A stretch of 64,000 nucleotides of DNA from a virus (IMGVR_UViG_3300050120_000170:1-64000), one strand, 5' to 3'; numbered from the stretch's first letter, positions 5,400-50,752 are shown. Notes: generated by a model not told the origin, from the letters alone. A program made the numbers and translations.

Positions 5400-6209
5400 A
5401 TGTCGATTATTACTCCCCAGGGCCGATACCTCGGCGGCAAGGTAGACAAGCCCGATCCGGCCGATCATCGGTTTGAACGGGTACACATGGGGGCTCCTCC
5501 CCAACTTCCCATCAGCGTGGACCTTTCCGCAAAGCTTCCTCCGGCCTTTGATCAGGGCCAGGAGGGCTCTTGCGGCGCCAATGCCGGCTCGGGTCTAATG
5601 TGCTACCTGTTCCCGGACAAGGCGGCGGTGGGCTTCTCCCGCCAGCAGATTTACTATGACGTCCGGGCACTAGAGGGTGATCCCGGGGTGGACGGAGGCG
5701 TGGAGACCCGGGACGTGCTGAAGATACTCCAGCAGACCGGGGCCATCACCGAGGACCTCTGGCGCTATATCCCGGCGAACATGTACACCGCTCCGCCGCA
5801 GGAACAGGCAGCAGACTACTCCAAGCTGGGTAGTTACAGCCGCCTGGTCTCGGAGTACGAATACGCGGCTTGCCTTGCCCAGGGCTTTCCGTTCATGCTC
5901 GGGTTCCAGTGCTACGAATCAATTGACTCACCGGACCTCGCCCGGACCGGCGTGATGCCGTTCCCGAACGCGAAGACGGAGCAGCTGGTGGGTGGCCATG
6001 ACGTCCTCATCGTCGGCTACACGACCAGCTTCAAGTCCTCGGAAGTCTTCAAGGCGTCCGGGGTAGACCCGGCCCTGGTCGATGACGAGGCCCTCCTGAT
6101 CCGTAATAACTGGGGCACGGACTGGGGTCTGAAGGGCTACTTCTGGATGCCCATCAGCTACGCTACCAACCCATCAACCGGCGGAGACGCCTGGACAGGA
6201 AGGTTATAA
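5400..6209 (+). CDS. papain-like (C1 family) cysteine peptidase
   Basis: QGQEGSCGANAG (catalytic Cys context), GGHDVLIVGY (His) and NNWGTDWGLKGYFWM (Asn-Trp), in canonical C1 order. Confidence 0.8.
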   Translation: MSIITPQGRYLGGKVDKPDPADHRFERVHMGAPPQLPISVDLSAKLPPAFDQGQEGSCGANAGSGLMCYLFPDKAAVGFSRQQIYYDVRALEGDPGVDGGVETRDVLKILQQTGAITEDLWRYIPANMYTAPPQEQAADYSKLGSYSRLVSEYEYAACLAQGFPFMLGFQCYESIDSPDLARTGVMPFPNAKTEQLVGGHDVLIVGYTTSFKSSEVFKASGVDPALVDDEALLIRNNWGTDWGLKGYFWMPISYATNPSTGGDAWTGRL

Positions 6210-8432: not shown

Positions 8433-8639
8433 CTAAATCAAACGCCGCTCCGATGAAGGAGCGGCGTTTCGCATTTTAAGATCGTAGAGCCGGGTGAGCA
8501 CGTCATCCGTAGACTGGAGCCTCCGCTCAAACTTCGGGCGACAATCGAGACAGACGAAGATGCCGTGGACCCCGTGCTCGTTCACCCGGAGGAGGGCGTC
8601 CCCGTCCTTGTCGCAGAGCCGACAAATTAGATGAGCCAT
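8433..8639 (-). CDS. small zinc-ribbon protein
   Basis: Start moved to MAHLICRLCDKDG..VCLDCRP (two CxxC pairs). Overlaps the helicase stop by 13 nt. Confidence 0.5.
   Translation of the reverse strand: MAHLICRLCDKDGDALLRVNEHGVHGIFVCLDCRPKFERRLQSTDDVLTRLYDLKMRNAAPSSERRLI
8440..8469. terminator. bidirectional hairpin terminator between convergent genes
   Basis: AAACGCCGCTCC-GATGAA-GGAGCGGCGTTT, a perfect 12-bp stem flanked by T-rich tracts on both strands. Confidence 0.7.
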
Positions 8640-10177
8640 TCTTTGTACCCGTCTCCCATAATCGCCGAGGACATATCCAGCTTGTCCCGGAGGGCCTGTA
8701 CCGGCTTCATCTCGTTCGTGCCCCGGGTGATGAAGTCCCCGATGACACAAGTATGCTTCTGGCCTTCTCGGTGAAATCGCTTCTCACTATTCATTCGTAG
8801 TTCCAGATTATAGTCGTTCGCGAAATACCAGGTCAAGGTGGCAACTGTCCAGGTATTCCCGCGCCCACCCGCCGCCGGGGTGGATAGCATGAAACGACAC
8901 TTCGGGTCCTTGAGAAACCTGCGTTCATCCTCGCCTCGGGTCGCCTTATTCTTGCCGTGAAACTGGGCTACCGATCCCGGGCCGTATATCTTCTCCAGGG
9001 CTGCCGCTGTCCGGGCGAGCGGACGATGAAACGGAAACCACACTATAGCTTTGCCGGCGTGCTCCTCTAGCACGCGAAGGAGAGCCGCCCCACGGTTACT
9101 CGGGATGTCGTGCTCGTTGCCGTCCTCGTCCACCGTAAACCCGCAGAGCACCTGCTGAAGCCGCATGTTCCGGGTGATGACCATCGTCGCCGTGACGTGA
9201 GCCTCGGCGCTGAGCTGGGCCGTCGCGAACTCCCGCAGGTCGTCATAGACCTCCCGTTGCTCCTTCGTCAGTTCTACCTCGATAAAGGGTGCGTAGACGA
9301 GGGGCGGGAGGTCCTGGCAGTCCTTGGACAGGACCCGGTAGCTATAGGGGGCGATCTTCTCCTGTAGCTCCTCTACGTTGCGATAGGCCACCTCGATGTT
9401 GACGCCCCGGGTCTTTGGTGAGCCGTCCGGGTTGAACTTACCCGGAATTACTACGTCAATCTTCTTGAGCACTGCATATCGAGCCCGGAAGGCGTAATAG
9501 GAGTTGAGCCCCAGTATCTTCCAGTCCAGAAACTCAAACTGCGGGTACAGGTCCATGGGCGAATTAGGGGAGACGAGGCCGGTGAGGATGCGCCTAGCTC
9601 CCACGCCCCGGGTCTCTCCTGCCAGGCGAATGATGGCCTGGGTCCGCTCGCTATCGTTGGATTTGATGGAGGTGCTCTCGTCCACCACCATCATCGCCCT
9701 GCGCTTTTTCCCGGAAGGAGTCAGGAAGGCCATAGCCAGGTCCCGGGCCTTTTTAGACGCGGACAAGGCCTCCACGTTCATCAGGAGAGCCCGGGGGCGG
9801 GGATCGTCTACCGTATCCAGGAGAGCCTCCAGCCGCCGGGTATGCCGTACTCCGGCTCCCGATACCCAGGCCTCCGCCCGGAGCCGGTCGTTGAGATCGT
9901 CACTCATATGACGGTGAAACTCGGAGGGCTGGCTCTCGTTCTTGTCCTCAATCCAGTTGAGGTACGATCCGGCTCCGGCGAAGATGAGGAGGTCCTGAAG
10001 GTCCTTCGCGTCCTCCCGTATCCCGAACTCGTCGGTGATCACCTTGGACTTTCCGGTGCCATACTCCATGATCCAGGCGTACACATCCTCCGAGGAGGGT
10101 GAGCGGGGTTTATTGAAGACGCGGTGTAACGCCGTCTCCTGGTGCTCGCGGGGGGTCGTCCGGGGGAGGTAGGTCAT
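8627..10177 (-). CDS. SNF2-family (SF2) helicase/translocase
   Basis: REHQ, EYGTGKSKV (Walker A), VVDESTSIK (DExx), LTGLVSPNSPMDLY, and a C-terminal helicase domain. Start placed at MTYLPR because the upstream extension covers a promoter motif. Confidence 0.85.
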   Translation of the reverse strand: MTYLPRTTPREHQETALHRVFNKPRSPSSEDVYAWIMEYGTGKSKVITDEFGIREDAKDLQDLLIFAGAGSYLNWIEDKNESQPSEFHRHMSDDLNDRLRAEAWVSGAGVRHTRRLEALLDTVDDPRPRALLMNVEALSASKKARDLAMAFLTPSGKKRRAMMVVDESTSIKSNDSERTQAIIRLAGETRGVGARRILTGLVSPNSPMDLYPQFEFLDWKILGLNSYYAFRARYAVLKKIDVVIPGKFNPDGSPKTRGVNIEVAYRNVEELQEKIAPYSYRVLSKDCQDLPPLVYAPFIEVELTKEQREVYDDLREFATAQLSAEAHVTATMVITRNMRLQQVLCGFTVDEDGNEHDIPSNRGAALLRVLEEHAGKAIVWFPFHRPLARTAAALEKIYGPGSVAQFHGKNKATRGEDERRFLKDPKCRFMLSTPAAGGRGNTWTVATLTWYFANDYNLELRMNSEKRFHREGQKHTCVIGDFITRGTNEMKPVQALRDKLDMSSAIMGDGYKEWLI

Positions 10178-10200
10178 GATCTCTAAAAAGAACCTCCCAC

Positions 10201-10214
10201 AGGACGAAGTAAAG
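10201..10214 (-). promoter_or_regulatory. CTTTACTTCGTCCT promoter-associated box (minus-strand copy)
   Basis: 13 of 14 match to the CTTTACTTCGTCTC family. Lies 24 nt upstream of the helicase ATG. Confidence 0.4.
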
Positions 10215-10263
10215 ACCCCGGAAACGACCTCGAAAAAGCGGCGCAACGAGAGTGGGCTGGAGG

Positions 10264-10444
10264 AGAATATTATGGAAAATCAATAGATGTGGGTCCGCTG
10301 GGATACATATCAGAAAAAGGATAACGGACCTTTTGTGGAGCTCAATTCCATAATAACAACGGGGGGTTAGTACTCGCAGGTCCGCTATACCCCAACGTAG
10401 GTCTCGCACGCGCGCGTCCGCGCCTAGGCGTATACGCGCGCGAC
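10264..10444 (+). repeat. 181-bp control-region block, copy A (partner at 43810-43991)
   Basis: Collinear with copy B at a constant offset of 33546 nt across at least 10264-10386. The first 65 nt have 6 mismatches. A 20-nt GCAGGTCCGCTATACCCCAA core is identical. Ends in alternating CG tracts. Confidence 0.85.
10287..10370 (+). CDS. 27-codon micro-ORF inside repeat copy A (speculative)
   Basis: MWVRWDTYQKKDNGPFVELNSIITTGG, preceded by a 4-codon ORF (ATG GAA AAT CAA TAG) abutting its ATG. Copy B has a same-length, same-frame ORF. Confidence 0.3.
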   Translation: MWVRWDTYQKKDNGPFVELNSIITTGG

Positions 10445-10470
10445 ACTTTGAGCGGATTTTCAGGTGTGCG

Positions 10471-10500
10471 CTTTACTTCGTCTCACCCCCCGGGTACCCT
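10471..10500 (+). promoter_or_regulatory. CTTTACTTCGTCTC-type promoter (TTTACT-N17-TACCCT)
   Basis: Exact 14-mer box. The -10-like hexamer ends 7 nt before the ATG at 10508, which implies a leaderless transcript. Confidence 0.5.
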
Positions 10501-10507
10501 TCACTTT

Positions 10508-10828
10508 ATGCCTCTTACTCGCCGATCAATCCTGTCCATGTTGGGCCTCGGAGCTGCGACGGCGGCTGTGCCGTCCCTCCTAGCCGGGGGGACGGTCGCG
10601 GCGGAGGTCCCGGTCACGATGACCGTGACGATTGTTCCACCGCCTCCTCCTATTGTCGGTCAGTTTGTCTATCATTTCGCCAACGGAAAATTCGGCCATA
10701 TGCTTTTTGGGGCGGACGACCGCTGGCACCCCTGGGACGAGACCATTGAGAGCTACGAGCGGATCACCGGGGGTTTACTTCGTCTTGGGCCGGGCTTAGG
10801 CTCCGAGGGATCGAACGAGCGAGCATAA
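10508..10828 (+). CDS. small exported protein with twin-arginine-like signal
   Basis: MPLTRRSILSMLGLGAATAAVPSLLAGG matches the Tat pattern (T-R-R-x-I-L plus a hydrophobic stretch). The upstream part of the tracked ORF covers the promoter. Confidence 0.6.
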   Translation: MPLTRRSILSMLGLGAATAAVPSLLAGGTVAAEVPVTMTVTIVPPPPPIVGQFVYHFANGKFGHMLFGADDRWHPWDETIESYERITGGLLRLGPGLGSEGSNERA

Positions 10829-10908: not shown

Positions 10909-10951
10909 ACGCCCCTGTTCCAGTCCCCCTGGCAGGGGCGTTTTTCGTTTT
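10909..10951 (+). terminator. rho-independent terminator
   Basis: ACGCCCCTG..CAGGGGCGT, a 9-bp stem, followed by TTTTTCGTTTT. Confidence 0.8.
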
Positions 10952-17249: not shown

Positions 17250-17717
17250 ATGATGTTCATATGTAGCGGGAGCCTAGACTACGGGGCTGGGAATACAATA
17301 GCCGAGCTGAGTGATCTTCAGTACGGTTTACTGCGTGGGGCGGTGACGTCCGAGTTCGCAAAGAAGCTGCCCGAGAACCGTTCGGAGTTCAAGCCGGACG
17401 ACTTCCACGGCTGGTCCGAGTGCGTCATGGACGACGTGGAGGTGGAGGCGTTTACCAGGTACGGTATGGAGGTCAAGATGAAGACCGTCCGGGGCCTATC
17501 TAGGGGGGACGCAGGCCCGGTGGTACAGCACGTCACTCAGATTAGTCTTGCCAACATCGGTCTGTTGGAGGTGGATGAGGTCACGTACCAGGAGGACTGC
17601 TGTACGGACGAGCTTCAATCTCTACTAGACGGAGGCTGGCGTATCCTGTGCGTGTGTCCACCAAAGGACGCGCGTAGACCCACCTACATACTCGGACGGC
17701 GGAGGGACAAGAAGTGA
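17250..17717 (+). CDS. hypothetical protein (first gene of modification island)
   Basis: 155-aa ORF. C-terminal DELQSLLDGGWRILCVCP..RRPTYILGR. No function recognised. Confidence 0.55.
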   Translation: MMFICSGSLDYGAGNTIAELSDLQYGLLRGAVTSEFAKKLPENRSEFKPDDFHGWSECVMDDVEVEAFTRYGMEVKMKTVRGLSRGDAGPVVQHVTQISLANIGLLEVDEVTYQEDCCTDELQSLLDGGWRILCVCPPKDARRPTYILGRRRDKK

Positions 17718-18616
17718 CGGACGGTGTAGAGCGGCTCAAGACCTGGATCGTGGAGCGAGAGGCCACCCGGTTCCGCAAGGAGAACAATCTCCCCATGGAC
17801 AACGTCCCGGACGGGAAGGGTGGTACCCGTCCGATCTGGACCGAGGACCCGATCATTGGGGCTTACCGTTTCTGTAACGTCCGGCGGGAAGACGACCGAG
17901 TGACGAAGTGGATAGCCAAGAATTGGCGGACCCCGAACCAGGACGACCCGGACCTCTGGTTTGCGATGCTGGTCGCCCGGTTCATCAATTGGCCGGATAC
18001 GCTGGAGCAGTTGGGCTATCCTATCCTACATACCGGAGCCGAGGCCGCCTGGTCCCTGAGCAAGTTCCTCCAGGTGATGGCCGCTCGGAAAGCACGCAAG
18101 TTGAAGTGCTACACCGGAGCCTATATGGTCCGGGCGGACCGGGATCACGCGGACAAGGCGGCCTACCAGGAGGCCGTCGTGTTCACCCCGATGTGGAAGA
18201 ACCGCTATGCACTACGCCCAAAGAAGGGTGATACGCTAAACAGCTATCATATGCTCCTCGGTCAGTTTCACGGCCTCGGCTCGTTTATGGCGGCCCAGAT
18301 CGTCGCTGACTTGAAGTACGTTGCGCCGCTCTCTAGCGCCTCGGACTGGTGGACGTTCGCGGCCTCCGGGCCGGGATCGCGGCGGGGCATGAACCGGGTT
18401 GCGGGTCGTAAGCCTGACGCCCCCTACACCGAGGACGAATGGCGGGCGGACCTCGGACGGCTTTACCAGAAATTGAGGGAGATGCCTCTCAAAAACGAGG
18501 AGCACAACCTGTTGGAGGGCCTCCACGCCCAGGACATCCAGAATTGTCTCTGCGAGTTCGACAAATACGAACGGGTCCGGCTCGGCGAGGGGCGACCCCG
18601 GAGCAAGTATCCATAA
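17714..18616 (+). CDS. aGPT-pyrophosphorylase-like DNA base hypermodification protein (paralog 1, tentative)
   Basis: WTEDPIIGAYRFCNVRREDDRVTKWI..DDPDLWFAMLVARFINWPDTL recalls the conserved N-terminus of alpha-glutamyl/putrescinyl thymine pyrophosphorylase clade proteins. Recalled from memory, not searched. Confidence 0.5.
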   Translation: MTDGVERLKTWIVEREATRFRKENNLPMDNVPDGKGGTRPIWTEDPIIGAYRFCNVRREDDRVTKWIAKNWRTPNQDDPDLWFAMLVARFINWPDTLEQLGYPILHTGAEAAWSLSKFLQVMAARKARKLKCYTGAYMVRADRDHADKAAYQEAVVFTPMWKNRYALRPKKGDTLNSYHMLLGQFHGLGSFMAAQIVADLKYVAPLSSASDWWTFAASGPGSRRGMNRVAGRKPDAPYTEDEWRADLGRLYQKLREMPLKNEEHNLLEGLHAQDIQNCLCEFDKYERVRLGEGRPRSKYP

Positions 18617-18626
18617 CCAAGGGAGA

Positions 18627-18827
18627 ATGATGATGTTACCCACCAACGAGATTAAACCCAAGGTGGACCTCATAATCGGGACATACCTCAAGGGCGTGAA
18701 GACCCGTCCCGAGGATCAAGCCGTTATCGAAGCGGCAACGGCGCTGGTTACTTCCACCCTGGAGGCCTTCCATGATTTGGTCTACTACATCCAGGAGATT
18801 GAAGGTATTGAGAGGCGACGCCGATGA
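18627..18827 (+). CDS. hypothetical protein
   Basis: 66-aa ORF with a GGGAGA SD, coupled to the neighbouring genes. Confidence 0.45.
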   Translation: MMMLPTNEIKPKVDLIIGTYLKGVKTRPEDQAVIEAATALVTSTLEAFHDLVYYIQEIEGIERRRR

Positions 18828-19726
18828 AAAACCCGATGTGCGTGGAGGGCACTCCTCTGGAGCATTACCCAGAGCTAGGGCTCTGGGTAAAGCGCGAAGA
18901 TTTGTGCTGCCCGCCCGGTCCTCATTTCTCCAAGACCCGGGGCGTGTACGCGCACATCAAGAACCGCCCCGAGGCGGTGATTGGGTGCCTCGATACGTCG
19001 CACTCGCAGGGCGGTTGGGCGACGGCGCAAGCGTGTAAGCTCCTCGGCAAAAAGGCCGTGGTCTTCTACCCCGAGACCGTGAAGATGAGGCGGGACGGAT
19101 ACGAGTTCCAGGAGCAACAACTGCGTCCCCGGGCGCTTGGAGCCTCGCTGGCTCCGCTTCAGGCCGGACGTTCCGCCGTCCTATATCACGCGGCCAAGAA
19201 GAAGCTACGCAAAATCGTCCCCAGCCGGGCCTCGGTCTACATGATGCCCAACGCCCTCAAACTCCCAGAGATGATTGACGAGACCGTGGCCGAGGTCCTC
19301 CGGACGCCCCTCCCCCCGGTTGACCTCGTCATCGTGTCCGCGTCCTCGGGGACGATAGCGGCGGGAGTAATCTCCGGCTTAACCCGGCTCGGCTACACCG
19401 GGGGGATCGTCGTCCACCAGGGGTACAGCCGCCCGGCCCACACCATTCGGAACTATATGGCCACGATGGTGGCTGAGTATTCCAACCGGCTCCTAGTCGC
19501 TCAGAAGCATCCGCATCAGCGCGGGGACGTGGATATTCAGCTCTGGCGGGAGGACTTTACGCTCGTGGACGAGGGTTACAGTTATGGGGACTCAGCTCCG
19601 GCGATCCGGGAGGATCAGGTCCCGTTCCCGTCCAACAAGTTCTATGACCGGAAGGCCCTCTGGTGGTGGTTGGATCAGGGCCGGAAGGTCCACAAGGGCG
19701 AGGTTCTCCTCTGGAACATCGGGTGA
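18824..19726 (+). CDS. PLP-dependent enzyme, tryptophan-synthase-beta/ACC-deaminase-like fold
   Basis: LWVKREDL..FSKTRG (putative PLP lysine) and the SASSGTIAAGV glycine-rich phosphate loop. Confidence 0.65.
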   Translation: MKNPMCVEGTPLEHYPELGLWVKREDLCCPPGPHFSKTRGVYAHIKNRPEAVIGCLDTSHSQGGWATAQACKLLGKKAVVFYPETVKMRRDGYEFQEQQLRPRALGASLAPLQAGRSAVLYHAAKKKLRKIVPSRASVYMMPNALKLPEMIDETVAEVLRTPLPPVDLVIVSASSGTIAAGVISGLTRLGYTGGIVVHQGYSRPAHTIRNYMATMVAEYSNRLLVAQKHPHQRGDVDIQLWREDFTLVDEGYSYGDSAPAIREDQVPFPSNKFYDRKALWWWLDQGRKVHKGEVLLWNIG

Positions 19727-20520: not shown

Positions 20521-20933
20521 AACGGTTCGACAACATATCAACCGAGGACCTTACCCAACAGGAGCACGACCTGCGGACGGAGGCTTGTCTCATGAAGTTG
20601 GAGGTTCAGAGGCGAATGCTGGCCGATTGCCCCGCGAAGTGCGGTTGGGTCTACCCGATTATTGACGGGCGTTTTAAGGGCCGGTATATAATGGTGTCCC
20701 AAGTTATCGTGGAGTACAAGGATCGCTGGGAGACACAGGGAAAGACGAAGAAGCCCTGCGGGTTCGTCTGTACTATCCACGGGGTCCTGAGGGGGACCTC
20801 TACGAGGAGAGACGGCTTTAACATCAATCACATCGTCCTCTGGAACAGCACTTTAGACTACACGAAGGGAGTCAAGGGACCCCGAGACTATAACCAATAT
20901 CACCATACATCCGGGAACGAGGACGACGAATAA
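20517..20933 (+). CDS. hypothetical protein
   Basis: 138-aa ORF. Visibly lower GC than its neighbours. Confidence 0.5.
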   Translation: MKRFDNISTEDLTQQEHDLRTEACLMKLEVQRRMLADCPAKCGWVYPIIDGRFKGRYIMVSQVIVEYKDRWETQGKTKKPCGFVCTIHGVLRGTSTRRDGFNINHIVLWNSTLDYTKGVKGPRDYNQYHHTSGNEDDE

Positions 20934-22309
20934 TGGATCACGCAGCCTGGTTACGAGACGGCCTCGATGGAGCCGACGAAGAACTGAAGAAATCGTACCA
21001 ATACTTCATGCGGGTAGACCCGGATCAGCGGGACTTCCTCGGACCTATCGTTAAGATTGACGATCCGGTAACGGGACGCCAGATGCGAACCCGAGTTGGG
21101 AAGGTGGGTATGGTTCGGGGTGCCAAACCCGAGAACATGAAGGACGTCACGATCTATATGGACCCGCTGCCGCACGTCCGTATCGAGAAGGGCAAGGACC
21201 TCCAGGGCTGGTATCAGGGCAAGCAGCTCTCGGCTCCGGGATCGCGGGAGCGGCCCTGTATGACAGACGCGATCCTCACCGAGCCCTACGGCGGCTTTTG
21301 CACTGTGGGCTGCTCGTTCTGCTATATCAACTCCGGGTTCCGGGGCTATCGTGGCTCCGGCTTGATTACTGTCCCGATTGGCTATGGTGCGCACGTCCGG
21401 AAGCAGTTAGCCTCAATGCGAACCTCGGCGGCGGGATACTTCTCCAGCTTCACCGATCCGTTCCTCCCGTTGGAGGACTACTATCACAACACCGAGGAGG
21501 GCGTCCGTGCTTTTACAGATAACGGATTACCAGTCTTTTTCCTCAGCAGACTGGCGTACCCCGACTGGGCAATTGATGCCTTGCGGGCCAATCCGTATAG
21601 TTACGCCCAGAAGTCCATTAACACTCCGGACCCGGACGATTGGAAAAAACTTTCTCCTGGTGCCCTTCCACTCATGGACCATCTCGATGAGATCAGGGCA
21701 CTGCGGGCAGCTGGGATTTACGTCAGCATACAAGTCAACCCCATCATCCCCGGGATCGTAACTCACGACGACGTGGAGAAGCTTTTCGGGATGCTCGCCG
21801 AGGCCGGAGCCAACCACGTCATTGTAAAGTTCGTGGAAGCTAACCACCCCTGGGCCGGGGCGATGGTAGAACGGATCAACAAGCGGTTCGGCGACAACCG
21901 AGGCGCGGCCTTCCGGGACCTGTTCACCGAGAATAGCTGCGGAGGCCAGAAGACGGTCACCGAGGAGTATCGCCGGGAGGGCCACACCCGCTATATGAAG
22001 CGGGCGACCGAGCTGGGTATGACCTATTCGCTGTGCTACGAGTACACGAAGAAGTCTGGTGAATGGCACTCTATGGGGCCGGAGTTCATCACCTCGGACC
22101 AGTGCCACGGCCACCGGGTCCCGATGCATACGAGGAGTGGCCCGGGGCAGCCGTTCCGTCCACTCGGAGAATGCCCACCCTCGGGATGCCTGTCATGCTC
22201 GGACGGCAACCGGGGTGTGCCTCGTTGCGGCTCTGCCCTCCTCGGGGAGGCTAAGGCACTGAGGATCGCAGACCTGAGAAAAGACCCATTCAAGGAGGTA
22301 GACGCATGA
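20933..22309 (+). CDS. radical SAM enzyme (SplB/DNA-photolyase-like architecture)
   Basis: GGFCTVGCSFCYINSGFRGY carries the CxxxCxxC cluster motif. 458 aa with a Cys-rich C-terminus. Confidence 0.8.
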   Translation: MDHAAWLRDGLDGADEELKKSYQYFMRVDPDQRDFLGPIVKIDDPVTGRQMRTRVGKVGMVRGAKPENMKDVTIYMDPLPHVRIEKGKDLQGWYQGKQLSAPGSRERPCMTDAILTEPYGGFCTVGCSFCYINSGFRGYRGSGLITVPIGYGAHVRKQLASMRTSAAGYFSSFTDPFLPLEDYYHNTEEGVRAFTDNGLPVFFLSRLAYPDWAIDALRANPYSYAQKSINTPDPDDWKKLSPGALPLMDHLDEIRALRAAGIYVSIQVNPIIPGIVTHDDVEKLFGMLAEAGANHVIVKFVEANHPWAGAMVERINKRFGDNRGAAFRDLFTENSCGGQKTVTEEYRREGHTRYMKRATELGMTYSLCYEYTKKSGEWHSMGPEFITSDQCHGHRVPMHTRSGPGQPFRPLGECPPSGCLSCSDGNRGVPRCGSALLGEAKALRIADLRKDPFKEVDA

Positions 22310-23082: not shown

Positions 23083-23154
23083 ATTATTAGGTTAAACGGC
23101 GCACCAAGGGAAACATGGATTATTAGGTTAAACGGCGCACCGAGGGAAACATGG
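23083..23154 (+). repeat. tandem 36-bp duplication spanning the ribosome-binding site and start codon
   Basis: ATTATTAGGTTAAACGGCGCACC(A/G)AGGGAAACATGG twice, with 1 mismatch. The second copy supplies the ATG at 23151. Confidence 0.9.
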
Positions 23155-23990
23155 CAGCAGACAGTACTAAGATCGGGGTCCGAGAGTTCGGCGACCTCCT
23201 CATTAAGACCCAGGACCTGGATCCAACGTATGTGGGCCTCCATGGTGCGGGTCTGGAAGTGGCTCAGCTCTCCCGCTGGCTCCTAGCTTACTGGTGTTTT
23301 TACCACGTGGGCCTCGCCTCCTGGCTCTCCGAACATACCAACAAGGACTATTGGCGCTGGATGGGGGAGGCGGCGGCTAATATAGCCCGGCCCCCGAATG
23401 CCCGTTACGAGCGTTGGCCCCGGGCTCCGGAACGCCGCCACTTCCGAGGTCAGAAGTGCGTGGACGCCGTTGACTGGCTCTCCAAGAAGGAGCCGGAGCA
23501 TTGGGTGGGAATGTTCCTTGACGCCCCGAACCGGGTCCGGAATGCAGGAGCCTGGACGGATAAGCAGGTTATGAAAAAGGTCCAAGATTGGCCGTTGTTC
23601 GGTCCCTGGATCGCGTTCAAGGTCGCCGATATGCTGGAGCGTTGCGCGGGCGTCCCGGTAAAGTTTGACCCCAACATCGCACTGATGTACGACGAGCCCC
23701 GGGCCGGGCTCGGGCTCTGCCAGCTCCACTCTCCGCCGGAGTACGCCCACCTGTCCCAGACGGATTGGTACAACGCCCTGTCTTTGTACTTCCGGGCGAG
23801 GCTGGCCCCCCCGGCTCGGGATCGGACTTGCGGCCCTCAGGAGGTGGAGACGGTCCTCTGTAAGTGGAAGTCCTATATGGGTGGACATTACCACCTCGGA
23901 AAGGATATCACCGATCACCGCAACGCCCTAGACGGTTGGGGGATTACGGCGGATCGGATCAAGAAGGCAATGCCGGAGGAGGTGAAATGA
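23151..23990 (+). CDS. aGPT-pyrophosphorylase-like or glycosylase-fold hypermodification protein (paralog 2, tentative)
   Basis: 279 aa. WLLAYWCFYHVGLASW..ERRHFRGQK..GPWIAFKVADMLER. Call rests on gene context and recalled family features only. Confidence 0.4.
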   Translation: MAADSTKIGVREFGDLLIKTQDLDPTYVGLHGAGLEVAQLSRWLLAYWCFYHVGLASWLSEHTNKDYWRWMGEAAANIARPPNARYERWPRAPERRHFRGQKCVDAVDWLSKKEPEHWVGMFLDAPNRVRNAGAWTDKQVMKKVQDWPLFGPWIAFKVADMLERCAGVPVKFDPNIALMYDEPRAGLGLCQLHSPPEYAHLSQTDWYNALSLYFRARLAPPARDRTCGPQEVETVLCKWKSYMGGHYHLGKDITDHRNALDGWGITADRIKKAMPEEVK

Positions 23991-24589
23991 TTGCTATCAA
24001 TATCAGGGGAACCGGGGGGAGCGGGAAGTCCACACTGGTCCGCAAGTTGATCGACCTCTACCCGAACCACGCGAATATTCTGGAGGAGAAGCGCAAGCGG
24101 GCGATGGCGACGTGCCACTGGTTCGGAGATAAGCTTAAAGACAGTCCGGCGGTTCGGCCTCCCGGCCTGTTTGTCCCGGGGCACTACGAGACGGATTGCG
24201 GCGGCTGCGACACGGTCAAGACCGTGGATAAGGTCTATGATCTGGTGCGGGCGTCCGCCCTCTGGGACGGCAACAACGTCCTCTACGAGGGGATCATGGT
24301 TATGGACGACGTGACCCGGGCCGTTGCCTTTGACCAGGATTTGAAGAAGGCCGGAGGCCGCCTGGTCGTAGTCAGCTTGACTACGACCATTGACGAATGT
24401 CTCGCAGGCATCCGGCAGAGGCGAGGCGCAGAGAAGGAGGCGGCCAAGCCCCTCAACGAGAAGAACACCCGGGACCGGATGAAGCGGCAGGAGAACAGTC
24501 TCCATCGCCTCAAGCAGGCCGGGGTGGAGCTGCGCAAGTTGTCGCGGGAGGACGCTTTCCTCCAGATCAGGGAATTGTTGGGGGTCTAG
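23987..24589 (+). CDS. P-loop kinase (5-hydroxymethyluracil DNA kinase-like)
   Basis: Start at the ATGA overlap. MIAINIRGTGGSGKSTLVRKL Walker A, about 200 aa, next to the pyrophosphorylase-like gene. Confidence 0.6.
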   Translation: MIAINIRGTGGSGKSTLVRKLIDLYPNHANILEEKRKRAMATCHWFGDKLKDSPAVRPPGLFVPGHYETDCGGCDTVKTVDKVYDLVRASALWDGNNVLYEGIMVMDDVTRAVAFDQDLKKAGGRLVVVSLTTTIDECLAGIRQRRGAEKEAAKPLNEKNTRDRMKRQENSLHRLKQAGVELRKLSREDAFLQIRELLGV

Positions 24590-25053
24590 TGAAGCCAGTT
24601 ATCGTGGGGATGAATAACCCTCTCTCGGGACGTTCGGAGCATGCGCTGTACCCGTTCCCGGAAGGGTGTACCGGACACCGGCTCTGGGTGCTTCTGAATA
24701 AGCGAACGGGGGCCTCCCAGGAGGATTACCTGGAGGCATTCGAGCGGCGGAACCTGCTTAACGAGCGGGTCTGGAATTTGAACAAGGCCCGGGACGCGGC
24801 CTCAAAGCTTATCCTGGAGATGAGGGGGCGCACCGTCCTCGTCCTCGGGGCGGAGGTCCGGACGGTTCTCAAACTGCCGGTGATGCTCGTACACCCGCAG
24901 GAATTGTGGGGCGTGACCTGGAGGCAACTCCCACATCCTTCGGGTCGTAACCCCTGGTACATGAAGGCGGGCAACCGGGAGGTCGCGGAGCTGCTCCTAG
25001 AGGAGCTGTTCCGGCTTCCACAACTAGGCCCAAGGGAGCCGATGATGCTATGA
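24589..25053 (+). CDS. uracil-DNA-glycosylase superfamily protein, SMUG-like motifs
   Basis: The GTG overlaps the TAG. VIVGMNNPLSG versus SMUG motif GMNPGP, and LPHPSGRNPWY versus HPSPRNP. Confidence 0.5.
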   Translation: MKPVIVGMNNPLSGRSEHALYPFPEGCTGHRLWVLLNKRTGASQEDYLEAFERRNLLNERVWNLNKARDAASKLILEMRGRTVLVLGAEVRTVLKLPVMLVHPQELWGVTWRQLPHPSGRNPWYMKAGNREVAELLLEELFRLPQLGPREPMML

Positions 25054-25502
25054 CGGTCCTCAGCGCACAGACGATCCTCCGGCTGGGGATCGTAATCCCC
25101 TGCCACGAGGCCTGGAAGGACGAGCACGGCAATTCCGCCGGGCTCTCGGGGTGTGGCTACGACATCACGCTGGAGAAGGAGATAGCCCTCCATCCGGGGT
25201 GCCACCTGCTCTGTGCCGCGCAGCAACAGTTTTCTCTCCCGAACAACGTCATGGGCGTCGTCCACGACAAGTCCTCGCTCGCCCGGCGGGGCCTCGCCGT
25301 CCAAAACACGGTCCTGGAACCGGGCTGGCGAGGCTTCCTGACCCTGGAGGTCACGAACCACGGCCACTCTTATATGCGCCTCGCCGAGGGAGCCGCCATT
25401 GCCCAGGTGGTGTTTCACTTCCTGGACGAGCCCACCCTCCTCCCCTACGCGGGAAAGTATCAGGACCAGGAACCCGGTCCCCAGAAGGCAAGGAGCAAGT
25501 AG
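25050..25502 (+). CDS. dcd: dCTP deaminase/dUTPase-fold enzyme
   Basis: GYDITL..DKSSLARRGLAVQNTVLEPGWRGFLTLEVTNHG, a typical Dcd/Dut beta-barrel signature. Confidence 0.8.
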   Translation: MTVLSAQTILRLGIVIPCHEAWKDEHGNSAGLSGCGYDITLEKEIALHPGCHLLCAAQQQFSLPNNVMGVVHDKSSLARRGLAVQNTVLEPGWRGFLTLEVTNHGHSYMRLAEGAAIAQVVFHFLDEPTLLPYAGKYQDQEPGPQKARSK

Positions 25503-25503
25503 A

Positions 25504-26694
25504 ATGCACGTCATACACGCCCGGAACGTCAGCGCGGCCCTCCCTCAGGGGTTGGCCTTCCTATCCAGCTGCGGTATTTGGGAGGAAACCCGAGCCGGGC
25601 GAGCCCTCGTCTCCCCCGTCCCCGTCGTCACAGCCTACACCAAGCCCCGGGAGCGGGTCCTACTTTCCCCGATCCGGGACGCCAATCCGTTCTTTCATCT
25701 CGCCGAGGCGCTGTGGATGCTCCAGGGTCGGGCTGATAGCAAGTTCCTGGACAACTTCATTCGCGACTTCGGCAGCCGGTTCGCGGAGCCGGGGGGAGAC
25801 GTTCATGGGGCCTACGGACGGCGCTGGCGGGGTCACTTTCAACAGAGCCAGAAGGGCTTCAGTGGGACCTGGGGGCTCAGGGTTCTAGACCAGCTGGCGT
25901 CCGTCGCTCGGGAGCTGAAGGACAACCCGGGCTCCCGCCAGGTCGTCCTCACGATGTGGGACCCGGGAGCGGACCTCGGGATTGCTGGCCTGAAGGACCG
26001 GCCCTGTAACACCCATATATACTTCCGGCTCCGGGATGAGGCCTACCAGAACCCACCTGTAACGGACCAGAACTCAGCGGAGCATGAGGCCCGGATTGCG
26101 CGCGGGGAGCATATGGTTCTGGATATGACCGTCCTCTGCCGTTCCAACGACATCGTGATGGGGGCCTACGGCGCGAACGCCGTCCACTTCTCCGTCCTTC
26201 AGGAATACCTAGCCTCCAAGATCGGCGTGCGGGTGGGGACTTACTATCAGGTCTCGAACAACTTCCACGCCTACGAGCGGGACCTCAACTTGCTCGCCAA
26301 GCGGAACCATGACAGCGGGTCTCATTACGCGGTGGAGGACGAGCTGAAGGACCTCTCTTATGAGGAGCGGCGGGTGAGCCCCCACCGGCTCGTGGATAAC
26401 CCGGCGACTTTCGATGGTGAGCTGCTTTGGCTGATGGATGCCTACGAGGCGGTGTTGGGGCAGGACACGGCTGACGAGAGTATCCACTCTCACGCCGAGG
26501 ACCTCGGCAACGGGTTCCTCGCCCATACGGTCTGGCCCATGCTGATGGCGCATCGGTTCTACCGGCGGGAGCAATACGACCCGGCTTTCCAGTGGGCGGA
26601 TCGGATTGAGGCTAAGGATTGGGGACGGGCCTCCGTGGAGTGGCTCCGCCGCCGCGAATTCATGTCCCAACATAAGAAGGAGAAGTTAGCTTGA
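25504..26694 (+). CDS. thymidylate-synthase-family pyrimidine hydroxymethylase (divergent ThyA homolog)
   Basis: AEALWMLQGRADSKFL, HGAYGRRWR, NPGSRQVVLTMWDP, DRPCNTHIYF (catalytic Cys), CRSNDIVMGAYGANAVHF. 396 aa with insertions. Confidence 0.8.
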   Translation: MHVIHARNVSAALPQGLAFLSSCGIWEETRAGRALVSPVPVVTAYTKPRERVLLSPIRDANPFFHLAEALWMLQGRADSKFLDNFIRDFGSRFAEPGGDVHGAYGRRWRGHFQQSQKGFSGTWGLRVLDQLASVARELKDNPGSRQVVLTMWDPGADLGIAGLKDRPCNTHIYFRLRDEAYQNPPVTDQNSAEHEARIARGEHMVLDMTVLCRSNDIVMGAYGANAVHFSVLQEYLASKIGVRVGTYYQVSNNFHAYERDLNLLAKRNHDSGSHYAVEDELKDLSYEERRVSPHRLVDNPATFDGELLWLMDAYEAVLGQDTADESIHSHAEDLGNGFLAHTVWPMLMAHRFYRREQYDPAFQWADRIEAKDWGRASVEWLRRREFMSQHKKEKLA

Positions 26695-35169: not shown

Positions 35170-35198
35170 GCCCCCCGGCTCAGCCGGGGGCTTTCGTT
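35170..35198 (+). terminator. rho-independent terminator
   Basis: CCCCCGG-CTCAG-CCGGGGG followed by CTTTCGTT. Overlaps the next promoter box. Confidence 0.65.
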
Positions 35199-42865: not shown

Positions 42866-43131
42866 TGGGTCTCTCCTGGGAGCGAGCCGAACGCTTTCAT
42901 GAACAGCTGTTCGGGGGTCTCCTCGATGTCGATACAGAGGGGCAGGGGGATGAACGCGCGTTCCGGGTCCTTCGGGGTGGGGCCAATGGACTGGTCTCCC
43001 GACCAGACCCGGGTGTATGAGGGGTGGTGTTGTTGCGAGATAACCATCATCGAGAAGACGGAGTTGAGGTTGATCCAGATCGGGTCCTTACTCGGGAGGC
43101 AGATGGCCTTAACCCAGTTACAGCCGTTCAT
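42862..43131 (-). CDS. hypothetical protein
   Basis: 89-aa ORF, coupled to its neighbours. Confidence 0.45.
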   Translation of the reverse strand: MNGCNWVKAICLPSKDPIWINLNSVFSMMVISQQHHPSYTRVWSGDQSIGPTPKDPERAFIPLPLCIDIEETPEQLFMKAFGSLPGETQ

Positions 43132-43577
43132 ATTCTCATCTCCGCGACGGTGACCCAGTTGTTCTTGAATGCCTCCCGGATATCCCGGCGAGTGGCTCCG
43201 CGTCGCAGAGCCGAGCCGAGGGTCTGCCCCGGGATGAAGTACTGATAGCGGTAGAAGGAGGGTGTTGTGGGGAGCCTCGGGTTCTGAACCACCGAGATAA
43301 TCCGCCGGTCGTCCGGCGAGGGCTTGCGCCTCGGGAGGAGCGGGTAGGGCTTAGGAGGCCGGGGCGGCAGCTTCTGGATCGGGTGCCCGATCAGGGCCTC
43401 TACCTCGGGGAGGAGGCTGAGGTGGAGCAGTTCTAGGACCACATCGGCCTGACCGAGATGCTTAAGGACGAGAGCATCCCAGAGTGGGAGGTTCGCGTCT
43501 AGGTTTAGCTTGATTTGGAGGGCTCGGGCGACCCCGGGCGAGAAGGATTGTATGACTGGAAGATATTTTGGTAGCAA
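43128..43577 (-). CDS. hypothetical protein (first gene of leftward operon)
   Basis: 149-aa ORF. TTG start with an AAGGGGGA SD. Confidence 0.45.
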   Translation of the reverse strand: MLPKYLPVIQSFSPGVARALQIKLNLDANLPLWDALVLKHLGQADVVLELLHLSLLPEVEALIGHPIQKLPPRPPKPYPLLPRRKPSPDDRRIISVVQNPRLPTTPSFYRYQYFIPGQTLGSALRRGATRRDIREAFKNNWVTVAEMRI

Positions 43578-43809
43578 AGTTGTTCCCCCTTGAGTTAGGC
43601 ATTTTCTACGAACGGTTAACTACGGGTAGAGTGCATATACCTGGGCCATGACCCAAGTCTAGGGGGTCCACAAAATAAATTTAGGTCCGTTATTCCCGTT
43701 TCGTTCTCGTGAAAAGGTCCGCTTAATCCGCTTACCAGGGTGGTTTTTTGCGGAACGATTAGGGAACGTGGTCCAGGAACCGAGGGGTGCCGCGAGAGTG
43801 GCTTGGTAA

Positions 43810-43991
43810 AGAATATCGTGGAAAATCAATAGATGTGGGTCCGCTCTCCTACATATCAGAAAAAGGATAACGGATTTTTGATGGAGGTGAAAAGTGTATT
43901 TATACCGGGGGGTTAAGGTATGCAGGTCCGCTATACCCCAAAGTAGGCCTAGCGCGCGCGTATCCGTACCTCCGCGTAAGGCGCGGGCGAC
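43810..43991 (+). repeat. 182-bp control-region block, copy B (partner at 10264-10444)
   Basis: See copy A. Same orientation, between the leftward operon and the NusG-like gene. Confidence 0.85.
43833..43916 (+). CDS. 27-codon micro-ORF inside repeat copy B (speculative)
   Basis: MWVRSPTYQKKDNGFLMEVKSVFIPGG, preceded by GTG GAA AAT CAA TAG. Same length and frame as copy A despite a diverged middle. Confidence 0.3.
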   Translation: MWVRSPTYQKKDNGFLMEVKSVFIPGG

Positions 43992-44089
43992 AATTGCTGG
44001 GGTACCTGACTGATGGGGCCGGGGGCTTGCCTTTGTTTTTGAGATCGGTTAGGAATTGCCCCTCATCAACCGAGGGAGCTGAACTGGGA

Positions 44090-44572
44090 ATGTGGATGGT
44101 CACGACCTTACAACCTGGAGGTTTGACCAAGGCGCAGGACAACCTGAAGGCTCAGTCATTTGAGCCCTACGCCCCCCGGTTCTTTGGAGACTTCGGAAAA
44201 CCAGAATTTCTATTTCCAGGCTATCTGCTAGTCAAGTTCCAGGCCGAATGGGGTCCAATCCGGAGCACGCGTGGGATCGCGAATGTGCTCATGGAGGGGC
44301 TCCGGCCTGGCTTGATTAAGGATGAAGAAGTTGACCGTTGGAAGGACGCCGAGGCCCCGGACGGGCTGATCAGGCTCCCCCGCGTGCTGACCCAGCCGCG
44401 TTTCCGGAACGGGCAGCGCCTACGTTTAGTCAACGGCTCCCTCGCCGGGAACCGAGGCTCCACAGTCATATACCAGAATCAAGAACCCCAGGAGCGGTGC
44501 GCAGTGCTCATGCGCCTTCTTGGGAAGCAGCTGAGCGTCGTGGTGCGTGAGGAGGACCTGGTAGCCCTCTAA
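44090..44572 (+). CDS. NusG/RfaH-family transcription antitermination factor
   Basis: Start moved to MWMVTT. NGN-like W-V..A...L..FEPYAP..LFPGYLLVKF..IRSTRGI, plus a KOW-like FRNGQRLRLVNGSLAG segment. Confidence 0.65.
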   Translation: MWMVTTLQPGGLTKAQDNLKAQSFEPYAPRFFGDFGKPEFLFPGYLLVKFQAEWGPIRSTRGIANVLMEGLRPGLIKDEEVDRWKDAEAPDGLIRLPRVLTQPRFRNGQRLRLVNGSLAGNRGSTVIYQNQEPQERCAVLMRLLGKQLSVVVREEDLVAL

Positions 44573-44637: not shown

Positions 44638-44649
44638 GGCGGTAGCTTG
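44638..44649 (+). promoter_or_regulatory. ops-type element GGCGGTAGCTTG
   Basis: Matches all 10 specified positions of the RfaH recruitment consensus GGCGGTAGnnTG on the non-template strand. Sits in the 99-nt gap after the NusG-like gene. Confidence 0.55.
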
Positions 44650-49908: not shown

Positions 49909-50752
49909 TGAAAAGGACACCGATCCCCGCAAGGTGACCAAGTACAAGGTCTCCGGGACCTTTTACAATCCTTCCGCCAAGGAGAAGACGGACAAGTTTG
50001 AGGAAATGGTAGAAGGCGAGGAGATGTCCGAGGGAGCGGCCAACTCGGCGTTCTACCAGCAGCACTCCAAGAAGTACCCACACTACAAGATCAGCTCCAT
50101 CGAGAAGCAGGAAGCTGCGAAGGCGGACGCTCATGCGGACGTCACCCGCTACCGAGATTTTGTGATTGTCGAGAACAAGGGTTCTTTTGACTTGTATTAC
50201 GACAATATGACGTTCATCAAGAGGTTCAAGACTATGGCCGAGGCCAAGGCTAAGGCGGATCATATCCTTGGTGGTTCTCGGAAGGACGGCGACACCGATA
50301 CCCAGCGAAGGGCTGATGGTGCCGGCACGAGAGACGAAGGGGCCTCGGCGCAGAAGGCCGGGAAGTCTCGTTCAGATAATCCGTATCCCGTGGGATCAGT
50401 CTCGGCTCGTTCTTGGAACAACGGGTACAGTGAAGCTGAGAACTCGAAGAAGGACGGTGACAAGGGCGTCCCGCAGACCGACACCCAGCGCGCGGGCAAG
50501 CGGATGGACGCCGAGGTGCTGGACAAGGTCGCCGACACCGTCGCCCGGATCGCGGACCGCTTCGGAGCCTACGTGGACCGGGAGATGTGCCGGATGGATG
50601 CTGAGGTGGAGAAGACCTTCAAGGTGTTCATAAAGATCAAGGATAAGGAGCGTGAGGTGTACCAAAAGGCGGCCTCCGCCGAAGAAGCTATCAAGAAGGT
50701 GAAGGAAACACTTTCTGGTGAAGAGAAGCGTTGGGCCTCGGTGTTCGTTTGA
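49901..50752 (+). CDS. Lys/Asp-rich protein with Rmf/CrpP-like motif
   Basis: GASAQKAGKSRSDNPYPVGSVSARSWNNGY resembles the G..A..G....NPY.......W..G(W/Y) motif. Lower GC than its surroundings. Confidence 0.4.
   Translation: MADEKDTDPRKVTKYKVSGTFYNPSAKEKTDKFEEMVEGEEMSEGAANSAFYQQHSKKYPHYKISSIEKQEAAKADAHADVTRYRDFVIVENKGSFDLYYDNMTFIKRFKTMAEAKAKADHILGGSRKDGDTDTQRRADGAGTRDEGASAQKAGKSRSDNPYPVGSVSARSWNNGYSEAENSKKDGDKGVPQTDTQRAGKRMDAEVLDKVADTVARIADRFGAYVDREMCRMDAEVEKTFKVFIKIKDKEREVYQKAASAEEAIKKVKETLSGEEKRWASVFV

Follow-up and report, generated by a model that had tools for sequence, protein, structure and literature searches.

The 64,000-nt window analysed here (IMGVR_UViG_3300050120_000170:1-64000), which belongs to an uncultured phage known from a 70.5-kb contig, contains two copies of one intergenic block, copy A at 10237–10444 and copy B at 43783–43991. 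Both read in the same orientation on the plus strand, 33546 nt apart, and they are 77–79% identical (E=2e-30). We interpret the blocks as a paired upstream operator array for a putative, fast-evolving phage DNA-binding protein that would co-regulate the replication and the late arms of the genome, and we put the probability of this reading at about 0.45. It is preferred because the blocks occupy a fixed position between promoter pairs, carry genome-specific motifs at conserved positions with further copies outside the blocks, are most alike around these motifs and co-evolve at the two loci. We infer from sequence all three of its components: the motifs as protein-binding sites, a phage-encoded binder and the regulatory outcome. 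An earlier note on this DNA had offered a shared regulatory hub, an origin-like element or a non-coding RNA; promoter position, recurring pairing and private motifs argue most for the hub, and the RNA fares poorly.

Two copies of one block

A repeat finder aligns copy A at 10237–10432 with copy B at 43783–43978 as an ungapped direct repeat of 196 nt with 77% identity (family D2). BLASTN of the window against itself, a check that the earlier note had proposed, gives significant similarity in a gapped alignment of 10247–10440 with 43793–43985 (79% identity, E=2.3e-30), which is the best non-self match and the strongest repeat of the whole window. Both procedures bear out the direct-orientation alignment of 10264–10444 and 43810–43991 described earlier. 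There are indeed no indels over 10264–10386 at the offset of 33546 nt, and the ungapped span reaches 10237–10432; the count of six mismatches in the first 65 nt is exact for 10264–10328 (TA/CG and GGGA/CTCC), and the identical 20-nt core GCAGGTCCGCTATACCCCAA lies at 10376–10395 and 43922–43941. Direct reading of both regions likewise agrees with the CG-run ends and the nested palindromes of copy A, and the gene coordinates place both copies between divergent units with the neighbours that had been named. The ends at 10444 and 43991 stand, but the start at 10264 does not, since homology begins about 27 nt further left.

Identity between the copies is concentrated in perfect runs of 27, 25 and 20 nt, separated by stretches at approximately 45% identity (permutation p=5e-5), and each run holds one copy of the motif described below. 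So strong a clustering of mismatches rules out a uniformly decaying duplication and indicates that specific segments of the block are kept alike.

A profile built from five block sequences finds only these two copies in the window and no match in about 160 unrelated loci. No block and no close DNA relative was found in GenBank phages, IMG/VR or JGI metagenomes; a 17-mer match in locus L001 falls inside a gene and is due to chance. The 512-nt intergenic region that holds copy B (window 43578–44089) recurs with 100% identity in L002 (SRR35930614_11537), a contig of an independent sequencing run that was compared with window 41.1–47.6 kb; the RfaH-like protein on that contig is also identical. 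A mobile repeat resembling a miniature inverted-repeat transposable element was considered and rejected: the two copies lie at equivalent sites, and their ends (GCxxCGAGAGTGG ... GCGACA) are not inverted repeats. No copies were found elsewhere in the phage, IMG/VR and metagenome collections.

Control regions of related phages

Contigs of related phages were found via homologues of the NusG-like protein, the SNF2 helicase and TerL. Both control regions (region A and region B, after the block copies) are available from R1 (SRR29078253_10236, 42 kb; loci L003 and L009) and R2 (SRR29078110_72917 and _4976; loci L010 and L164), the latter being two contigs of one sample that we assume to represent one phage. 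R3 (SRR13312996_86588; locus L094) provides region A only, and loci L006 and L011 provide region B only. No further control regions came from L095 and L165, which begin too late, or from L166, which is cut off, and a metagenome protein scan returned further relatives only at 26–34% identity. Several sibling phages co-occur in one sample series.

The window block hardly aligns with the R1 block and only barely with that of R2, at 79–84% identity of the flanking proteins, which are well conserved among the relatives (SNF2 81–86%, TerL 79%, UvrD 83%). Within the one R1 contig, the two control regions share 86% identity over 73 nt and 74% over 65 nt. Those of R2 share 70% over 138 nt (E=2e-16), which is the sole similarity between its two loci. 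The block sequence is thus peculiar to each of the three genomes and yet shared by both regions, which indicates concerted evolution within the genome.

The similarity could in principle be a by-product of recombination, with a duplicated intergenic segment homogenised by gene conversion and having no function of its own. Phage genomes do recombine intensely, and patchy conversion tracts can leave perfect next to scrambled stretches. Nevertheless, we regard this as very improbable: pairing, architecture and motif positions are kept in three diverged phages despite the sequence turnover, motif enrichment is genome-specific, and neutral duplicates would not hold matching arrays at two loci amid diverging surroundings.

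Genome-specific motifs

The putative site of the operator array in the window is GGTCCGCT, an asymmetric 7–8-mer (GGTCCGYT). At equivalent positions, the relatives carry motifs of their own: GGGACGG in R1, CGTATCA in R2 and CTGTCGCA in R3. Unbiased counts of 7-mers in the control regions recover GTCCGCT for the window, GGGACGG for R1, CGTATCA for R2 and TGTCGCA for R3, together with the shared words of a promoter motif (D3, see below) and CGCGCGC.

Each motif is concentrated in the control regions of its own genome, with 7 of 27 copies for the window (p=5e-8), 8 of 22 for R1 (p=5e-5), 13 of 17 for R2 (p=1e-16) and 6 of 8 for R3 (p=1e-7), these p-values being optimistic since the motifs were picked after the regions had been viewed. 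A genome-by-motif matrix is nearly diagonal. Looser matches in the window (RRTCCGYT) behave in the same way: 10 of 34 fall in the two intergenic regions (1.3% of its length), and the remainder are at background level.

Individual sites in the window have no dyad, inverted copies being 31–72 nt apart, and tandem copies follow one another at 8–11 nt (in R1, R2 and R3, and at 43716/43725 in the window). The occurrence of direct, inverted and tandem copies, some of them outside the block, suits DNA-binding sites rather than a single RNA stem.

The control region of R3 also contains two window-type GTCCGYT copies on the minus strand (L094, around 5930–5945; 'AAGGTCCGTTTCGG'), one of them beside the SNF2 promoter. 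These may be relics of a motif switch.

Arrangement of the blocks

The motifs share alignment columns across both regions of the window, region A of R3 and both regions of R2. In copy A, O1 (GGTCCGCT, 10292–10299, plus strand) lies within the 27-nt stretch that is identical in the two copies, and O2 (10323–10330, minus strand; AACGGACC on the plus strand) is inverted and 31 nt from O1 across AT-rich DNA. Elsewhere O1 is again direct, in tandem in R2 and R3, and O2, an inverted copy of each relative's own motif at the equivalent position, follows 25–31 nt on, also across AT-rich DNA. A variable AT-rich stretch leads to CGGGGGGTTA (10360–10369 in copy A, plus strand), the sole island conserved between phages; it is present in both window regions, R3 and R2, and its G-run occurs also in R1 and L006. 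O3 (GGTCCGCT, 10379–10386, plus strand) lies within the identical 20-mer and is likewise direct, in tandem in R2 and R3.

O3 is followed by a CG-rich palindrome, which in copy A is nested and strand-neutral (10409–10442) and consists of CGCGCGCGT (10409–10417), CGCCTAGGCG (10421–10430) and ACGCGCGCG (10434–10442). Usually, an inverted O4 comes next. That of copy A (10451–10458, minus strand; AGCGGATT on the plus strand) is situated just beyond the homology between the copies and approximately 54 nt upstream of the predicted rightward start, and an inverted motif follows the palindrome also in region A of R1, R2 and R3 and in region B of R2. Copy B has O1 at 43838–43845 (plus strand), O2 at 43869–43876 (minus strand; AACGGATT on the plus strand), CGGGGGGTTA at 43906–43915 (plus strand), O3 at 43925–43932 (plus strand) and an imperfect, strand-neutral CG-rich palindrome at 43952–43989 (GCGCGCGCG ... 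CGCGGGCG) that is weaker than that of copy A. Three extra direct copies of the motif precede block B within 43684–43732 on the plus strand, namely GGTCCGTT at 43684, GGTCCGCT at 43716 and AATCCGCT at 43725 (spacings of 32 and 9 nt), and in R2 the orthologous place holds copies of its own motif (L164 6166, 6184 and 6197).

The heptamer CGCGCGC occurs nine times in the 64-kb window, seven times within the two control regions, and four of its seven copies in the R3 locus are similarly placed. The rest of the genome seems to avoid alternating CG runs. This near-confinement to control regions may bear on the role of the palindrome and of CGGGGGGTTA.

The composition of the blocks raises the question of a replication origin. 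The blocks could be origins, or one origin and an origin-like copy, with the private motifs as initiator-binding sites, the inverted sites flanking an AT-rich unwinding segment and the GC-rich palindrome priming or loading the phage archaeo-eukaryotic primase (AEP). In a window of 60% GC, the left halves of the two blocks rank first (in a tie) and fourth among the most AT-rich 80-mers; in copy A, this half extends over about 10264–10359, followed by CGGGGGGTTA, a motif copy and the CG palindrome. O1 and O2 are inverted around some 23 bp of AT-rich DNA next to a GC-rich palindrome. Copy A directly precedes the replication module and coincides with the minimum of the cumulative GC skew. The private repeated motifs resemble iterons with their initiators, and if both divergence points fire, the forks would travel in the direction of transcription through all four units. 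Copy B, however, is beside packaging and structural genes at no skew extreme (the maximum is near 52 kb), and two equivalent origins are uncommon in a phage genome. Beside the AT-rich half and tandem pairs 8–11 nt apart, there are only 4–6 sites of 7–8 nt in mixed orientation, which do not form a regular iteron array. No initiator was identified, and IHF and DnaA boxes in the block amount to partial matches at most when sought by eye. Transcription control is the simpler explanation for a strict placement at promoter pairs at both loci in three phages. An origin function is thus unlikely in our estimation, and we return to the operator array and the promoters that frame it.

Flanking genes and promoters

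Copy A separates the SNF2 helicase gene (8627–10177, minus strand) from the rightward replication arm, which encodes a DUF7307 protein, a Pam3-gp34-like protein, an AEP primase, UvrD-type helicases, PolA and a thymidine-hypermodification set. Copy B separates a leftward gene for a 149-aa protein (43128–43577), in an operon of small proteins without annotation (39.5–43.6 kb), from the gene for a NusG/RfaH-like protein (44090–44572); the latter is the first of a rightward arm that continues with terminase, portal and structural genes.

The D3 motif is a 15-nt sequence, GCTTTACTTCGTCTC, found on the plus strand at 10472, 10774, 10960, 17195 and 22903, on the minus strand at 10213 and as a variant at 35190 (plus strand). 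Its exact 11-mer TTTACTTCG occurs six times in the window against 0.4 expected. When the window and three relatives are taken together, TTTACT is followed after exactly 17 nt by an nAnnnT hexamer in 13 of 17 instances, and D3 therefore appears to be a sigma-70-type promoter with an extended –35 region. The conserved extension past the –35 hexamer suggests a dedicated factor. All members of the family GCTTTACTTCG(T/C)CTC belong to the SNF2 unit or the replication arm, and the family probably marks one temporal class.

In region A, the rightward D3 promoter (10470–10500, plus strand) has its –35 TTTACT at 10472–10477, a 17-nt spacer and its –10 TACCCT at 10495–10500. The leftward D3 motif before SNF2 (10185–10215, minus strand) has TTTACT at 10213–10208 and, at a distance of 30 nt, the ATG at 10178. 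After the 17-nt spacer, the window has CTTTTT, which is not –10-like, and R2 and R3 have an nAnnnT hexamer. In region B, the predicted rightward promoter (44024–44055, plus strand) comprises –35 TTGCCT (44027–44032), a 17-nt spacer and –10 TAGGAA (44050–44055), and it is kept as TTGMCN-17-TAGnnn in R1, R2 and L006, that is, in four phages with the window. The leftward promoter of region B (43634–43661, minus strand; –35 TAGACT at 43661–43656, –10 TATATG) is postulated from conservation only, the leftward CTAGAC box at 43656–43661 being conserved in the relatives. Each block thus fills the gap between two predicted promoters that stand back to back, and it ends 27–35 nt before the rightward –35. 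An ATG lies exactly 7 nt past the –10 for the gene at 10508 and for SNF2 of R2 (L010) and R3 (L094), which implies leaderless mRNAs for these genes.

Two other promoter candidates were discarded. A sigma-54 promoter with enhancer sites at copy B would rest on a GG-N10-GC spacing that is present in the window only and not in R1, R2 or L006, and an internal leftward promoter (TTGAGC/TTCACC-16-TATCCT) occurs in both window copies but has no counterpart in R2 and R3.

Directly after the first D3 promoter, the window contains a 106-aa open reading frame (ORF; 10508–10828) with a twin-arginine-type signal peptide (MPLTRRSILSML...). R1, R2 and R3 have approximately 170 nt of non-coding DNA instead, and the ORF therefore looks like an inserted accessory gene (a 'moron'). 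A hairpin with a T-run (GTCCCCCTGGCAGGGGCGTTTTTCG, 10923–10949) closely precedes the next D3 promoter, an arrangement shared by R1, R2 and R3 (L009, L010 and L094). The first rightward promoter thus appears to give only a short transcript unless termination is overcome.

RNA and coding potential

We also considered that the block might be transcribed and act as a small RNA or as a cis-acting leader in antitermination or processing, with covarying O1:O2 and O3:O4 stems. The inverted copies are complementary within each phage (GGUCCG/CGGACC in the window, ACUGUCG/CGACAGU in R3 and CCGUAUCAU/GUGAUACGG in R2), two C-to-T changes in O2 of copy B preserve pairing as G-U on the plus strand, and copy B closes the palindrome hairpin at its base with another pair (UACCCCA/UGGGGUA) than copy A (UCCGCU/AGCGGA). 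Moreover, plus-strand folds are about 12 kcal/mol more stable than minus-strand folds. The z-score of copy A on the plus strand is –3.0, yet copy B with +0.5 is no better than its shuffles, and over eight sequences the module ranges from –2.9 to +1.3 with no consistent strand.

Conservation and covariance analysis in related phages, which the earlier note had recommended, shows that the pairing recurs with genome-specific sequence, but the alifold consensus structure is weak (–12 kcal/mol, covariation term +0.6). The window has no Rfam 15 match at gathering thresholds, and up to E=5 only eukaryotic families appear, far below gathering. Tandem direct copies and copies outside the block cannot serve as stem arms, no promoter within the block is conserved between phages, and being upstream of the conserved promoters, the block would go untranscribed by them. 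We therefore judge an RNA function to be improbable, and the corresponding suggestion of the earlier note finds little in its favour, given the missing Rfam match, the lack of a shared consensus structure and the position of the block upstream of the promoters. No tRNA or tmRNA was found.

A protein-coding block was rejected as well: both window copies keep one frame open on the minus strand, but R1 and R2 have stops in all six frames. The same applies to a leader peptide, since the 11-codon mini-ORF ending in GGGGGGTTAG is present in both window regions and R3 but not in R1, R2 or L006.

The RfaH-like protein and its ops site

The product of gene 44090–44572 resembles RfaH along its entire length (TIGR01955, 7.6e-19, short of the curated cutoff), and its best PDB match is RfaH. 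A perfect canonical ops sequence, GGCGGTAGCTTG, is located at 44638–44649 on the plus strand, in the 100-nt gap between this gene and the next late gene. It heads the terminase/structural operon and is preceded by a small CCCC..GGGG hairpin. Each of the eight relative loci that contain the gap has GGCGGTAGCnTGC without any change (L003 10570, L004 3115, L005 755, L006 1721, L007 736, L008 568, L011 3155 and L095 403), and L006 has the exact Escherichia coli ops, GGCGGTAGCGTG. A scan of IMG/VR with the ops pattern returned no other member of this phage group, and distant SNF2-bearing phages in IMG/VR are without the pattern.

The block might be the recruitment site of this protein, similar to ops or to UpxY-type sites, and render the polymerase termination-resistant on both rightward operons. 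NusG paralogs that are specific to certain loci and read leader DNA have been described (PMC11685472). The first gene downstream of copy B is the one for the RfaH-like protein, which with 40–48% identity is the most divergent conserved protein nearby (TerL 79%, SNF2 84%). However, the conserved canonical ops is elsewhere, and neither block matches the 12-nt ops GGCGGTAGnnTG with up to two mismatches, the single perfect match in the window being 44638–44649. The block also lies upstream of the promoters and has motifs in both orientations. Thus the invariant ops at 44638 accounts for the site of the RfaH-like factor outside the block, and this site does not vary between phages. We give a recruitment function next to no credence, and the link between block and NusG-like gene implied earlier finds no support, as that protein has its own conserved ops site elsewhere.

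A proposed paired operator array

In the operator reading, the block would be an upstream control module between two back-to-back sigma-70-type promoters, and it would carry an array of sites recognised by a sequence-specific DNA-binding protein that the phage encodes and that varies in specificity between phages. The module would consist of O1, about 23 bp of AT-rich and probably bendable DNA, inverted O2, a variable AT-rich spacer, CGGGGGGTTA, O3 and the CG-only palindrome, to which copy A adds inverted O4, with the rightward –35 hexamer 27–35 bp past the module. The protein would bind its sites cooperatively at both loci, so that the promoters at 10472 (replication and nucleotide-modification arm) and 44027 (RfaH-terminase-structural arm) receive the same input, e.g. 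a timing switch, which the two leftward units may share. The copies would stay alike because both must fit one protein; intragenomic gene conversion and selection would spread changes from one copy to the other, while the protein–site pair drifts between lineages.

Several observations weigh against this model. We found no DNA-binding protein with matching variability, and Pfam, PHROG and NCBIfam gave no match for the early-left proteins. Conservation of the neighbouring 149-aa protein extends to its helix-turn-helix-like C-terminus, so that this protein cannot explain genome-specific motifs; an 89-aa protein is missing from R2, and the Zn-ribbon protein after SNF2 seems to be absent from R3. 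The sites lie 50–220 bp upstream of the predicted starts and off the core promoters, which is unusual for a repressor, and with its nearest site at about –133, copy B is far for a simple activator. Perfect runs of 20–27 nt far exceed a 7–8-nt motif, and the model leaves the CG palindrome and CGGGGGGTTA without a role. Finally, the promoters and start sites are predictions, the motif statistics are optimistic as noted above, and both regions come from three genomes only (the window, R1 and the assumed two-contig phage R2).

A more far-reaching version is a long shot in our opinion. Here the blocks would be the cis half of an "identity" system, in which a fast-evolving phage protein recognises the genome that encodes it at two nearly opposite points and licenses replication and late transcription there. 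If true, the blocks would be dual origin-promoter hubs in a virulent, DNA-hypermodifying lineage, and co-infecting siblings would be unable to cross-activate or parasitise one another.

Comparison with known control regions

The block pair functionally resembles known dual control regions such as lambda OL/OR but lacks their defining features, and it matches no described family. As in OL/OR, two distant intergenic regions contain the same short sequence in several copies, the sequence is phage-specific and would co-evolve with its binder, and the regions head the main early units. The lambda operators, however, are 17-bp dyads over the –35 and –10 elements, in opposite orientation around the immunity region beside cI and cro, whereas here asymmetric 7–8-mers lie 50–220 bp upstream in a 200-bp block repeated directly 33.5 kb apart. 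The motif sites nearest to the predicted –35 hexamers (10472, 10213, 44027 and 43661) are 14–95 nt outside them. Helix-turn-helix, repressor, integrase or lysogeny families were not found among the 60 proteins scanned, a scan that could miss remote homologues.

With P2 Ogr/P4 Delta (–55) and T4 MotA, the model shares a phage protein that binds upstream of the –35 region or in its place and thereby turns on a temporal class, and O4 of copy A is centred near –54. The sites of these proteins accompany every promoter of their class, however, whereas the array is present at two places only, the D3 promoter motif recurring seven times without a block. Copy B, moreover, has its sites no less than 130 bp upstream.

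The herpes simplex virus (HSV) origins oriS and oriL, which lie between divergent genes and exist in more than one copy per genome, and oriV of RK2 and RSF1010, the latter having ssi hairpins, combine initiator sites that flank AT-rich DNA with a GC-rich or palindromic segment. The block is similar to these origins in its inverted sites around an AT-rich stretch, its adjoining GC-rich palindrome, its position between divergent promoters and, as in HSV, its presence in more than one copy, but its motifs are short and few, and there is neither a DnaA box nor regular iteron spacing.

HK022 putL/putR and lambda nutL/nutR are also pairs of similar elements in phages that depend on antitermination, and each of the long operons is headed by one of them. 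The put and nut sites lie downstream of promoters and act as RNA with defined stem-loops, whereas the block is upstream of the predicted promoters and has no supported RNA structure, and antitermination in this phage is already explained by the RfaH-like protein and ops. Mycobacteriophage cluster A stoperators resemble the sites here in being short, asymmetric repressor sites of lineage-specific sequence; they differ in number and placement (20–30, genome-wide and oriented with transcription), the present sites being confined to two regions. Our literature search on the regulation of related phages found nothing specific.

Phage setting and implications

The window has no nucleotide match among GenBank phages. 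Its SNF2 helicase is at most 35% identical to that of any GenBank phage, and its NusG-like protein has no match among them. Thymidine-hypermodification genes lie at 17714–18616, 18824–19726, 20933–22309, 23151–23990, 23864–24589, 25050–25502 and 25399–26694. The set includes two 5-hydroxymethyldeoxyuridine DNA kinase-like proteins, an amino acid:DNA transferase, a pyridoxal phosphate enzyme, a ThyA-like protein and a dCTP deaminase/dUTPase, as well as a radical-SAM match that is weak (E=0.0017) and short of the curated cutoff. Hypermodification of T is probable in the DNA of this phage, and the palindromes of the blocks, being made of C and G only, would then escape it.

Elsewhere in the window, a 36-nt unit is duplicated in tandem (ATTATTAGGTTAAACGGCGCACCRAGGGAAACATGG x2; 23083–23154, 97% identical and in perfect register) close to where the amino acid:DNA transferase gene starts. 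A late-arm ORF of 636 aa (50731–52641) has internal repeats at 51808–52171 with a high content of Lys, Ala, Asp and Glu, which consist of 83-nt units that are 88% identical and of shorter copies.

Gene regulation in uncultured non-lambdoid phages is almost unknown. For a phage group without a cultured relative, the analysis provides a map of conserved, predicted sigma-70-type promoters, putatively leaderless first genes, an RfaH/ops late switch and two matched upstream modules with short motifs that differ between phages. The pairwise co-evolution of the blocks is a natural experiment, in that swaps of the 8-mers between siblings should re-wire specificity, and the block itself is usable as bait for its putative binder. 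If this binder controls both replication and late genes, it would constitute a compact master switch, useful for host-independent annotation and for engineering.

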